NCBI GenBank assembly: GCA_964016885.1
Contig: OZ024750.1
Coordinates: 10,602,001 to 10,666,000 of the forward strand
Length of the DNA: 64,000 nucleotides
Direction of reading: 5' to 3'
Origin: Eledone cirrhosa
Taxonomy: Eukaryota
Under the pieces are notes generated by a model. The model saw only the letters and a program-made list of their open reading frames with translations. It made no database searches and was not told the origin of the DNA. Positions 5,537-58,460 of this stretch are shown piece by piece (the stretch's first letter is position 1; each line of letters begins with the position of its first letter). Made by a program: the position numbers and the translations under genes.

Positions 5537-5730
5537 TAACGAAGGAAAAGTGGTAAGGAACCAGGTGGACCATAACGCACCAAAGTACTCAATACTTAGG
5601 GTAGTAGAGTGGGTAATAGGAGTAAGTAAGACCCCGACGGCTGAGCTCAAGCCGTCGAAACGGCTAATTCTGTACAGAATTAGCCGTCGAAACGGCTTGA
5701 GCTCAGCCGTCGGGGTCTTACTTACTCCTA
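5537..5730 (-). mobile_element. Family A tail + fold-back element (putative Penelope-like pLTR remnant), copy 1
   Basis: 80-bp tail TAACGAAGG...GTGGGTAA, then palindrome 5617-5730 (TAGGAGTAAGTAAGACCCC...GGGGTCTTACTTACTCCTA). (TA)n on both sides. Confidence 0.85.
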
Positions 5731-6078
5731 TATATATATATATATATATATATATATATATATATGTATATATATAAAATAAAATAAGTAAGTCAAACAT
5801 GTTAAATTTGGCTTCGTTTATTATCTGCTATATATATTTCAGTGACAGCTATTATTGGCTGTGACCTCTTCAGGCAGTACGAATTAATGAAAGAACAGGT
5901 AAACATGGTGTTGAAATGCGTTCCACTCTGTCAATTCATCGATATGTCCAGCTTCTGGGCGTGTTGTTAGTCCTACAAGGAACTGGAATCATATATGATT
6001 TCTATATGAAATCATATATGAATTCTGCAGAAAGCAAATCCTCTTTCAGCAGAAAGAGGATTTGCTTCGAAATCACTC

Positions 6079-6176
6079 GACATATCTGAGGAACTTGCGA
6101 ATCCAGAGTCAGGTTCGATCCACAAACACATCGCACCTCGAGCTATTCGCCGGAGAAACAATTATATAACGTAATA
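6079..6176 (+). ncRNA. Degenerate hammerhead ribozyme with expanded stem II (homologue of 35151-35244)
   Basis: CATAT-CTGAGGA...GAAAC-AATTATATAAC-GTA-ATA. Shares CAGAGTCAGGTTCGATC and CCT.GAGCT with the 35151 copy. Stem I is only partly intact. Confidence 0.45.
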
Positions 6177-6539
6177 AATTGTGTTCCGATGCATCACTGA
6201 TTCTTCGTTTTCCATATTATTATACTCTGCTCCGAAGGAGCATAGAGTGCTCAACCGGCATGCCGCCTATGGACGCATCCAAGCAACCTTACTACAAATA
6301 TATATATATATATATATATATATATATATATATATATATACACATACTTACATATATATATGTGTGTGTGTGTGTATGTGTGTGTCTATGTGGGTGTATA
6401 TGTTTGTATATGCTTGTGTGTTTGTCTAAGGAAGGTGAGCATGAAATATCTACCAATCAGACGAAACGAATCAGTAAAATAAGTGTCCACCTCCCAAACA
6501 ACAACAACAACAACAACATCAACACAATATGAAAGTGAC

Positions 6540-6980
6540 AAAAAAACTTCATCCACCAAATAACCTATCTAAAACCGAAACACCTCCTTTTCTTATCGTC
6601 ACAATGTATAATAAACCGTCCCTTCTCATTTAAATGGAGTGGGGTAACAGTTCAATATAAAAGAGACCTACTGACTCATTTATATGTAATGAAATACGAT
6701 AATAACGGGGTTAATCAAGCCCCAACAGGTAAATCTAATTAGTCAACATATTTAGTACTGTGTATTTGTCAATGCTATATTACTGACGTGAAAAAAGGGC
6801 TGGGCTTATAATTAAATATTTGCAACATTCCCTATTATCTGGATATCTGAGTGAATTTCGGTCACGGTTAATAGTTTCTTAAAGTGTTTAAGAAATATAT
6901 TGTACTGAGATTGTGTAAAAAGGCGGTGAATTATTAGAATCGTTAGAACGTGAAGAGTAGAAAAATACCTTACTGACGTT
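6540..6980 (+). promoter_or_regulatory. Putative promoter-like unique island
   Basis: Non-repetitive island with a TATAAAAG near 6657, CRE-like TGACGT motifs near 6784 and 6975 and several TAAT/ATTA sites, lying upstream of a CT-rich tract and the candidate first exon. Confidence 0.25.
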
Positions 6981-7009
6981 CTCTCGCGCTCTCTCTCTCT
7001 CTCGCCTAT

Positions 7010-7400
7010 TTCCACTTATCACTCCCCCCTTATCCCTCTCTCACGTCCTCTCTCTCTCTCTTATCACTCCCCCTTTATTCCTCTCTCACGTCCTCTCTCT
7101 CTCTCTCTTATCACCCCCCCCCCTTTATTCCTCTCCCACTCCTTCTCTCTCTCTCTCTCTCTCATCACTCTCCCATGTCCCCTCTCTCTCTCTATTTCTC
7201 TCACGCCCTCTTTCCTACGTATCACTCTCCCACGTCCTCTCTCTCTCGCCCCCCTCTCTCTCCCTCTCTCTCTAACGCCTATTTCTCACTTATCACTCCA
7301 CCTCCTATCAATCTCCCACACTCTCCCTCTTTCTCTCACGCCCCCTACCCCACTCTTCCACCTTCTCTCTCTCTCACTCTATTTCTCGCTCTTTCTCGTT
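7010..7400. repeat. CT-rich minisatellite / polypyrimidine tract
   Basis: Repeats of TTATCACTCCCCCTT(T)ATCCCTCTCTCACGTCC(TC)n. Confidence 0.8.
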
Positions 7401-7417
7401 CCCTCTGGAAGCGAGAC

Positions 7418-55369: not shown

Positions 55370-56015
55370 CCAGAACAACACCGTCGCCAGCATCCTTAAC
55401 GACATCAACGGCAGCAACAACAACAACGGCAGCAACAACAGCAAACCTATCACCAGCACCAACACCATCACCAGCACCATTAACAACAACAACGGCAGCA
55501 ACAACAAAACTATCACCAACACCATCACCATCACCAGCACCATTAACAACAACAACAACAACGGCAGCAACAACAACAAAACTATCACCAACACCAACAC
55601 CAACACCATCACCAGCACCATTAACAACAATAACCACGACAGCACCCATATCAACAACAACAACAACAACAACGACGACAGCACCCATATCAACAACAAC
55701 GACAGCAACAACAACAAAACCATCGCCAGCACCAATAACAACAACAATAACACCACCACCACCACCACCACCACCACTACCACCACCACCACCACCACCA
55801 CCACTACCACCAACAACACCATCGCCAGCACCATTAACAACAAAAGCAGAAACAACAACAAAACCATCGCCAGCACCAATAACAACAACAACAACAACAG
55901 CACCAACACCATCGCCAGCACCACCAGCACCACCAGCACCACCACCACCACCATCACCACCACCACCACCAACACCAGCACCATTAACAATAACAACAAC
56001 AACAACAACAGCAGT
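55370..56015. repeat. (CAA/CCA/GCA) minisatellite
   Basis: Recurring CATCACCAGCACCATTAACAACAAC units. Confidence 0.8.
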
Positions 56016-56824
56016 AATGACTGAATATTCTGAAAAGCTATCAAGATGGACGCGTGACATAGTCACAATGATGCCCGTTTAATTTCAAATGTAAACAAAA
56101 TATGTTGTATATTTTCTAACACATTAACTCTTTTTCATTTTGACAAAACAAAAAAGAATAAATAATCAAAATAAAATATATATAAATATATATATATATA
56201 TATATATATATATATATATATATATATATATATATATATATATATATATAATTGTTTCTACTTTTGGCACAAGGCCAGCAATTACCCAGTACATTTCTGA
56301 ATGTCTGATCGTTTTGGTTTTTATATTTTATATAAAATATTTTATTGAGGAGATGGGAAGAAGATGGTTCTTGAAAAGACTTTGGAAGACTGTTGTTAAG
56401 TTAAAAGTTTTGTCGTCAATCACAATTTGATGTCAAATGTAAAGTCGTTGGTATTTTTCTTGTTTTTAATCCGTGTGGAAGAACGTGGTCTAGTTGTTAA
56501 GGTGTCGGTGATACGATCGTCGTCAGGTCATGGCAAAGTATATATATATATATATATATATATATATATATATATATATATATATATATATAGAATATAT
56601 AAGATCAAAAGATGGTTAAAGGAGTACCATGTATTTTATTATGCGCATTTCAAAAACAAACATCATCATGCAATAATATTTGTGTTTTCATCAGATAAAA
56701 CAGGAGGACATGATATGAAGGCTAAAAAACACTTGTGGATAGTGCAGTTTTAAATCAACATGTACTACAATAAAACTCACCTCCTACATATATATATATA
56801 TATATATATATATATATATATATA

Positions 56825-56998
56825 TAACGAAGGAAGTGTGGTAATGAACCAGGTGGACCATAACACACCAAAGTACTCAATACTTAGGGTAGTAGAGTAG
56901 GTAATAGGAAATTGTTCAAGACCCCGACGGCAATTTAGTCCAGAAATAGCCGACGAAACGGCTTGAGCTCTGCCGTCGGGGTCTTGAACACTTTCCTA
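56825..56998 (-). mobile_element. Family A tail + fold-back element, copy 8 (asymmetric, tail-side arm partly deleted)
   Basis: Tail plus TAGGAAATTGTTCAAGACCCCGACGGCA...TGCCGTCGGGGTCTTGAACACTTTCCTA. Confidence 0.85.
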
Positions 56999-57039
56999 TA
57001 TATATATATATATACATATATGTGTGTGAGGAATCATCT

Positions 57040-57090
57040 GGCTTCCTGATAATTTTTCCGGAATGAAACAGTTCCAGTCCTGTAGAAGCC
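57040..57090 (+). ncRNA. Type I hammerhead motif with one core substitution, followed by a family-A-like tail (to ~57172)
   Basis: Stem I GGCTTC/GAAGCC, core CTGATAA, short stem II, GAAAC, stem III ACAG/CTGT, triplet GUA. Downstream ACTCTGCTATGTATTGAGTACCTTGCTTACTATGGT resembles the family A tail. Confidence 0.65.
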
Positions 57091-58339
57091 CCATTTCAAT
57101 ATTAAATATTTATACTCTGCTATGTATTGAGTACCTTGCTTACTATGGTTACCCCCGATTGAACTCCGGATAAATATATATATATATATATCTGTGTATA
57201 TATATATATATATATATATATGTATATATTTGTATATATATGTGTGTGTATATATATGTATATATTTAGTCTCCTTATGAGTATTATAAGCCATGGTCTC
57301 ATAACAGCTACATTGTGTCATAGTATAGATGTATAAGAGATGTATGCATTTCATTTTCGTTATATATATATATATATATACATATATATATACATATATA
57401 TATATATGTGTGTGTGTGTGCATAGGGGCGGGGGGTACGTATGTATAGATATATAAATATTCTCCCTCCATTCCCCAACAAACCTATACACACACATACA
57501 CGCATACCAATATAAGTATATATATATATATATATATATATATATATATATATATGTGTGTGTGTGTACATGCGAATCATTGTTTTTTCAAGTGTGTATA
57601 TAGACCTACATATATTTTTCTATATATCTGATGCATAATAATTTCTATTTTACGTTTTATTTTCCTTCTAAATGTTGTCCTTTCTTCTCAGTTGCTGTCA
57701 AGACGTCTTAATGGTGAGTGTAAATGGGGGAACAATACCTTAACCCCATTAGAGAGCTCCTCTTAAGGAGAAAACAACCCACTTGAAATGAAACAGAAGT
57801 AGAGAGAAGTACATACACACAGATACATGTATATATGAACAATTTATCTGGTCATTCATATGTGAGATGGTGGTGTGCGCGCGTGCGTGTGCGTGTGCGT
57901 GTGTGTGTGTGTGTGTGTGTGTGTGTGTGTGTGTGTACACACCCTGCTTAGAACGGCGAACCGCCAGTAACTGCAGTTACGCACTTACGTAACACACACA
58001 CACACACACACACACACACACACACACACACACACACACACATATATATATCACCATGTAGTTGACGGCTGAGAGAAAGGAGTAATCAATACCAAAGTAA
58101 AGTTTTAATATTCATTTATATGATAAACAAGCGAAACTCCAGAGTAACAAGGCTGACTCTCTCTCTCTCTCTATATATATATATATATATATAGATCTCT
58201 CTCTCTCTCTCTCTCTCTATATATATATATATATATATATATAGATCTCTCTCTCTCTCTCTCTCTCTCTCTCTCTCTCTCTCTCTCTCTCTCTCTATAT
58301 ATATATATATATATATATATATATATATATATATATACA

Positions 58340-58460
58340 TAGGAAAATGTTTAACCCCGTCGGTGTTAAACATTTTCCTATTACCCACTCTACTATCCTA
58401 AGTATTGAGTACTCTGGTGCGTTATGGTCCATCTGGTTCCTTACCACACCTCCTTCGTTA
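58340..58460 (+). mobile_element. Family A element copy 9 (short fold-back)
   Basis: TAGGAAAATGTTTAACCCCG-T-CGGTGTTAAACATTTTCCTA plus full tail, in (TA)n. Confidence 0.85.

Follow-up and report, generated by a model that had tools for sequence, protein, structure and literature searches.

The window, a 64,000-nucleotide stretch of Eledone cirrhosa contig OZ024750.1 (positions 10,602,001 to 10,666,000), contains nine copies of a short element that has an 80-nt unpaired tail and is always embedded in a (TA)n microsatellite (Table 1). These copies are interpreted below as products of a Penelope-like retroelement (PLE). Their starts, their tails and their (TA)n surroundings had been proposed in a reading made from the letters alone (the sequence-only reading) and were borne out when the window was re-read; a tail profile run over the window matched exactly the same nine copies. 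The tail of copy 4 has 85 nt, including a 5-nt duplication, and the other tails in the window have 80. Eight copies also carry an inverted counterpart of the arm that adjoins the tail. As had been noted, this inverted arm stops at the complement of CCTA and is missing from copy 2, and the variable segments next to TAGG are those that had been listed; in copy 5, CATA takes the place of CCTA. Over the last 16 nt, the two arms of a copy differ at 0, 0, 0, 2, 0, 0, 1, and 0 positions (mean 0.4), in agreement with the earlier description of near-perfect matches, versus a mean of 6.2 (minimum 2) between copies. Symmetry of arm length is not universal, however: in copy 8 the tail-less arm has approximately 66 nt and the tail-bearing arm approximately 27 nt, and simple fold-back cannot account for these arms. 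Copy 3 belongs to the youngest subfamily and is 98.6% identical to the full-length element described below; no open reading frame (ORF) remnant of that parent element was found in the window. One arm of copy 1 has a hairpin-loop micro-inversion (5650-5665), in which the loop enclosed by the short inverted repeats GCCGT/ACGGC is inverted. Throughout, positions in the element are numbered such that +1 is the A of AGTCCAG, the pseudo-long terminal repeat (pLTR) ends at +60, and the tail ends at +140.

Table 1. Coordinates of the nine copies, of a second PLE-end family, and of the parent ORF (window positions unless a locus is named)
Feature	Position	Strand	Description
Copy 1	5537..5730	-	tail 5537-5616; tail-bearing arm to ~5675; inverted tail-less arm ~5672-5730; TCGAA loop flipped in one arm
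Copy 2	23618..23756	-	tail 23618-23697 plus single arm from +2 of predicted RNA start; no inverted arm
Copy 3	33992..34198	+	inverted arm 33992-34051 (+1..+60); templated insert of 7 nt at the junction; arm 34059-34118; tail 34119-34198
Copy 4	36343..36542	+	inverted arm 36343-36401; arm 36401-36457; tail 36458-36542
Copy 5	36623..36787	-	divergent CATA-ending subfamily; tail 36623-36702; arms ~43-46 nt
Copy 6	43272..43465	-	tail 43272-43351; arm 43352-43410 (from +1); inverted arm 43411-43465
Copy 7	51998..52200	+	inverted arm 51998-52058; arm ~52061-52120; tail 52121-52200
Copy 8	56825..56998	-	tail 56825-56904; tail-bearing arm short, 56905-56931 (+35..+60); tail-less arm longer, 56933-56998, extending beyond +1
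Copy 9	58340..58460	+	arms ~20-24 nt; tail 58381-58460
Second PLE-end family	57041-57172	+	canonical CTGATGA...GAAAC hammerhead, own tail; inverted-arm architecture in other loci
Second PLE-end family, tail-less piece	~62350-62430	-	
Parent ORF	L032:675-2840		721 aa; between pLTR+tail copies

The element was expected to be very abundant, and it is. An exact 19-nt word from the tail occurs 47,490 times in the genome and the reversed word, used as a control, does not occur at all, so chance can be excluded. The genome is 3.0 Gb in size and rich in microsatellites. Seven tails were found in 39 arbitrary 10-kb stretches, which extrapolates to approximately 54,000 tails (95% interval, 22,000 to 111,000), and the density of tails in the window is above the genome average. 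The family was characterized in a sample of 191 insertions, which come from the window and from loci picked for their tail sequence or their position, and were drawn from the 197 unique tails of this sample (276 tails over all loci at that point). Tails with an incomplete 3' end, two duplicates, and loci found by head, ORF, or hammerhead queries were left out. At least three TA units lie within 4 nt after the tail in 169 of 190 tails, and fewer than 200 nt separate the left boundary from the tail in 162 of the 191 insertions. An inverted arm is within reach in 130 insertions, where partners more than 1.5 kb distant escape the two-arm scoring.

One of the 30 loci from the first genome search extends on both sides and contains a full-length element. 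After (TA)n, it begins with an inverted 1003-bp copy of the 3' end, which stops without a tail at CCTA, and with a 5' pLTR that starts from GTCCAG. Tail sequence, a 5' untranslated region (UTR), a 721-aa ORF, a 3' UTR of about 1.2 kb, a 3' pLTR, the 80-nt tail, and (TA)n follow. Because the tail sequence downstream of the 5' pLTR runs on into the 5' UTR, the tail represents the start of this UTR. Linkage of a tail to an ORF for reverse transcriptase (RT) and endonuclease (EN) had been suggested as a check of PLE origin; the tail does adjoin a full ORF that is predicted to be of this kind, and the short copies are almost certainly PLE by-products. The description of the element as a non-autonomous PLE did not hold, since the copies come from an autonomous family, are dead on arrival, and do not amplify themselves. 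All 150 scored matches to a 101-aa piece of the RT are 99-100% identical to it, many of them in long open frames, and the family is therefore young. At L342-L343 (G000:C1:437198000-437214500), approximately 4.5 units, each of 3531 bp, are arrayed head to tail; this array contains four intact ORFs and forms the tail-less arm of one insertion.

The pLTRs, partial tandems, inverted 5'-truncated copy, and one-sided tail are the architecture of EN-containing PLEs, as is a single ORF with a telomerase-related RT; the ORF found here has YRDDG. A model of the ORF product has a pLDDT (a model confidence score) of 89.9, and its best fold match is telomerase RT (TERT; E 7e-9). Searches of Pfam and of Protein Data Bank (PDB) sequences with the 721-aa ORF gave no match. 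Its C-terminus resembles GIY-YIG endonucleases, with VIYQ...YIG, R, E, and N motifs; YIG is present in 41 of 54 aligned sequences, and the alignment to Fig. S7 of PMC8557442 was made by eye. According to PMC8557442, the Hydra clade is marked by RW(K/R), DKT, a CxCX5C linker, and CxxC and CxH placed around E and N of the endonuclease, together with (TA)n targets. Along with YRDDG and VIYQ...YIG, the ORF contains the whole set of motifs: LRWR at 36 (where most homologues have RWK), DKT at 117 (in 51 of 54), CNCPDRSIC at 572 (CxCX5C), CNLC at 670 (CxxC), and CKH at 698 (CxH); insertion is into (TA)n. By eye, the ORF has no CCHH motif and agrees, in its RT and EN blocks, with the Hydra rows of Fig. 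S7 (PMC8557442). The inverted 5'-truncated copy is also as described for Penelope-13_HM (PMC8557442).

In contrast, the unit of 3.53-3.55 kb is longer than the Hydra clade's typical size, generally under 3 kb, the tail has 80 nt rather than 30-40, and the predicted hammerhead has a UUGANAA core (U3-A8) and a long loop II rather than the canonical CUGANGA (PMC8557442). The element does not belong to the Hydra-1_Obim family of Octopus bimaculoides, which has a different hammerhead and is listed as 'no pLTR' in the same source. Because size and hammerhead core are typical traits and not clade-defining motifs, the element is filed as an autonomous PLE that likely belongs to the Hydra clade. Near the full-length element, L032:5781-7676 (-) contains a different RT ORF, of 631 aa, with a GIY-YIG-like C-terminus and a weak Pfam RVT_1 match, which is probably a PLE of another clade.

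The arms of the insertions have two fixed 3' end points, one where the pLTR ends (+60, CCTA) and the other where the tail ends (+140, GTTA). At both points the next base of the element is T, such that TA(T) is common with the target. Among the 130 two-armed copies, a script scored the arms as within 10 nt of each other in 83 and the tail-bearing arm as longer in 13. In 23, including copy 8, the tail-less arm exceeds the tail-bearing arm by at least 10 nt; this figure is what remains of 34 copies flagged by the script after inspection by eye removed 11 that had internal deletions or were divergent and mis-scored. Six of the seven long stretches examined have a tail-bearing arm head to head with a long tail-less arm that ends at CCTA. 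In long insertions the tail-less arm copies the element's 3' end over 0.5 to approximately 16 kb, and in the extreme case a tail-bearing arm of 284 nt faces a tail-less arm of tandem units of approximately 16 kb. Five tails have no arm at all, which fits complementary DNA (cDNA) from +140 that was halted at the second start site.

Some insertions are arranged differently. At L141:1378-1580 and L032:4790-5010, head-to-head pairs carry tail sequence in both arms, so that the tail, or a point inside it, can serve as the start of both primings. At L214:1160-1580, a pLTR, tail, and 5' UTR extend to the first base of the start codon, where a second pLTR is joined exactly at +1; this suggests a template jump to the start-codon region.

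The sequence-only reading held that the palindromes were made at insertion from several source subfamilies and were not a miniature inverted-repeat transposable element (MITE). The existence of several source subfamilies is supported. Of the 104 short two-armed copies, 100 have distinct junctions, and the 14-nt variable segment is the same on both arms in 58 of 100 copies, with at most one difference in 81, versus 8.0 and 16.5 when shuffled (five further copies could not be parsed). Because the arms agree within each copy and the junctions are distinct, each hairpin was made at insertion, and the agreement also argues that both arms come from the same source. A MITE would have terminal inverted repeats at both ends and would amplify as a single unit, whereas this element has an unpaired tail at one end and diverse junctions; target duplications are unreadable inside (TA)n. 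Overlaps of 0-2 nt are commonest at the junctions, inserts are frequent, and several inserts repeat nearby arm sequence. In the insertion at L174, the two arms seem to belong to different subfamilies.

At +8 there is a rare variant, present at 47 places genome-wide. Of 20 informative insertions, 15 have it on a single arm and five, including copy 3, on both arms (by eye). Since it is mostly one-armed, arms are not routinely homogenized later, although some shared or locally templated variants exist. Its use as a marker of the 5' pLTR was dropped, because it occurs across subfamilies and does not tell which of the two pLTRs served as template. Internal tails also seemed to differ from terminal ones, but the difference is a private change in one copy.

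The 5' limit of the arms is sharp. In the GTCCAG-type subfamilies, 134 of 208 arms start at -7 to +10, 57 at +11 or later, four at -8 to -150, and 13 beyond -150, and the starts at -7 to -1 are mostly chance matches across the palindromic junction. Among the first 30 sites of the +1 word, 10 continue into upstream sequence (nine by script and one by eye), and genome counts are 30,992 for the word at +1 to +19 versus 8,005 for a word 30-50 nt upstream, the two words differing in degeneracy. The +1 site reads TTAGTC or TCAGTC, which is initiator-like, and a TATA-like word is located at -29 to -31. Both words are present in 10 of 10 main-type references, and an eleventh reference, of a divergent subfamily, has the initiator-like word only. 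In L083, L190, L214, and L255, the element adjoins other sequence at +1 or +2. In the second PLE-end family, 13 of 23 truncated arms start within 6 nt of one another, approximately 30 nt after (T/C)ATAAATA, and this limit is at a different position in the hammerhead; six more arms run through it, three being the references themselves. Penelope has an internal promoter within its pLTR (PMC2377424), and TATA plus initiator have been noted in rotifer pLTRs (PMC3846280). Thus, +1 is likely the 5' end of the RNA, and the mini-hairpins would be two run-off cDNAs. A splice acceptor at TTTAG/TCCAG was rejected as an explanation of the limit, since most boundary arms keep the AG and there is no common upstream exon.

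Twelve long copies are predicted to fold as a type I hammerhead three-way junction with UUGANAA, GAAA, and GUC at the core positions and a 5-bp helix III. All four bases occur at N7, and U3-A8 is a known natural hammerhead core (PMC4209133, PMC3088659). The variable segment is directly 3' of stem I. The +1 site falls inside loop II, and the predicted hammerhead would therefore be complete solely at the RNA 3' end. The short units have neither the TATA-like box nor the 5' half of the hammerhead; a search of Rfam over the window, which has only the 3' half, gave no match.

Our preferred explanation, to which we assign a probability of about 0.7, is twin priming at two sites, with run-off at the predicted RNA 5' end and head-to-head joining of the two cDNAs. 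The element's enzyme would prime reverse transcription twice, once on each nicked strand of the (TA)n target. Starts at +140 and +60 on the 5' copy of pLTR and tail in the RNA would give run-off cDNAs of 140 and 60 nt, if +1 is a start site of RNA polymerase II, as its TATA-like box and TTAGTC/TCAGTC initiator suggest. Both arms would presumably be supplied by the same RNA or the same source locus, and host end-joining could then seal the cDNAs head to head. Longer copies might result if the 3' copy of pLTR and tail is primed in a read-through RNA, or if the template is switched at +1. Hammerhead cleavage at the RNA 3' end would remove the 3' priming sites, such that short products would be favored. 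A full strong-stop-like cycle is possible, but we regard it as doubtful. In it, a terminally redundant RNA would begin at the promoter start of the 5' pLTR and finish where the hammerhead cuts the 3' pLTR, and a protein dimer would prime two cDNAs near the RNA 5' end. Long copies would arise when the run-off cDNA jumps to the matching 3' repeat, mini-hairpins would be failed strand transfers, and the ribozyme would set the ratio of short to long copies.

Several observations weigh against twin priming with run-off or against its components. The start site, expression, and ribozyme cleavage are predictions. One subfamily has a weak TATA-like word (TATTCAAA/TATTCATA) and the divergent-subfamily reference has none, and the +1 site was judged against the general initiator consensus. 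In the hammerhead alignment, 97.9% of cells are paired, but there are no compensatory changes, and the alignment does no better than shuffles. Single-sequence folds have z-scores of -0.3 and -1.9, a sizeable minority of core words combine C3 with A8, which are unable to pair, and arms do not clearly pile up at the predicted cleavage site (10 of 208 at +41 to +43). The C-terminal endonuclease domain was not recognized by Pfam. Finally, the asymmetric short copies might also reflect later deletion within a hairpin, which hardly explains the long asymmetric insertions, and the five insertions with the +8 variant on both arms are also compatible with local fold-back synthesis.

A PLE parent and two primings could be retained if +1 were instead a site of RT stalling or RNA processing in hammerhead loop II, with the short copies as ordinary 5'-truncated products primed at the RNA 3' end. 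The limit is indeed just past stem II of an RNA that is predicted to be structured, heavy 5' truncation has been described for PLE insertions (PMC8557442), and the RNA start at +1 is itself a prediction. However, the second family has its limit at the start of stem I, yet again approximately 30 nt past a TATA box. Moreover, 13 of the 17 arms that cross +1 extend more than 150 nt further, and the other sequence joined at +1/+2 in several loci is what would be expected of a template end. A stall or processing site is thus unlikely.

Slightly less likely still is self-primed fold-back, which has been proposed for head-to-head palindromes of PLEs (PMC3846280) and was the mechanism favored by the sequence-only reading. 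The first cDNA, consisting of tail and arm, would loop back and copy itself as far as the CCTA point. This would account for the near-perfect symmetry of most short copies, for junctions with templated inserts and 1-2 nt overlaps, and for the mirrored +8 variant. But a fold-back arm cannot contain sequence that is absent from the tail-bearing arm, so the 23 copies with a longer tail-less arm, and the tail-less arms of kilobase length, which were copied from the 3' end rather than from junction-adjacent sequence, show that fold-back is not the general cause. Also, at least one copy (L174) has arms that resemble different subfamilies, and nothing would halt copying at CCTA, 80 nt before the target. 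Fold-back may act locally while junctions are sealed, but as a general mechanism it is contradicted by the long asymmetric insertions. A non-autonomous MITE-, short interspersed nuclear element (SINE)-, or retrozyme-like element that amplifies as a ready-made hairpin would explain the high copy number and the short, uniform size, but it is very improbable given the distinct junctions, the asymmetric ends, the missing TATA-like box and hammerhead 5' half, and the continuity of the short unit with an autonomous element.

Twin priming with run-off combines features of several known systems. Strong-stop DNA of LTR retrotransposons is a short cDNA that is primed near the RNA 5' end and runs off its template, and L1 twin priming creates inversions by a second priming off the other target strand. 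Here, priming would be by target DNA rather than tRNA, with a fixed second start, and the products would be integrated unchanged. A precedent is Poseidon of the lizard Anolis carolinensis, whose protein nicks and extends both target strands in vitro, with RT starts at two sites flanking the tail and AT-rich targets (PMC11167929). The starts of Poseidon are inside the ORF and have no homology to the cut DNA (PMC11167929), whereas those proposed here are in the 5' UTR and have TA(T) in common with (TA)n. In the parts of the Poseidon study examined, later steps are unvalidated, and inverted arms and run-off products are not discussed (PMC11167929).

Hammerheads of the PLE Cercyon of Schistosoma mansoni also have a U3-A8 core, which shows covariation, and occur as motif pairs on opposite strands 100-700 bp apart; they are minimal motifs that lack a stable helix III (PMC4209133), in contrast to the 5-bp helix III here, which is split by the predicted RNA start. 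Like the copies described here, non-LTR retrozymes are short noncoding derivatives of PLE pLTRs (bioRxiv 10.64898/2026.07.22.740005). However, retrozymes have direct tandem units and a whole hammerhead (bioRxiv 10.64898/2026.07.22.740005), and these are dispersed head-to-head pairs with half a hammerhead, starting inside loop II, and with unique junctions. The architecture, the clade, and (TA)n targeting are already known. In the literature covered, with most subscription papers outside it, nothing was found that deals with this PLE family, with run-off products of PLE promoters, or with twin priming as the origin of inversions in PLEs.

For PLE pLTRs that are inverted and carry a tail on one side, self-priming has been proposed (PMC3846280), versus the two start sites observed in the sole in vitro study (PMC11167929). 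The family provides tens of thousands of natural products that separate these models, in that arm lengths differ either way, 3' ends are fixed, and the 5' stop is at a promoter-like site. Its intact, near-identical ORFs make the model testable in vitro. Copies of such a family would be mis-annotated as MITEs, and the hammerhead would escape searches for the canonical core.

Beyond the second PLE-end family, the window has more minimal hammerhead-like words (CTGANGA...GAAAC) at 43523 (+), 40444 (+), and 26948 (-), which are probably the ends of other PLE families. At 10355-10862, a 202-bp unit is repeated 2.5 times in tandem with 99% identity; we take it to resemble a cephalopod SINE.

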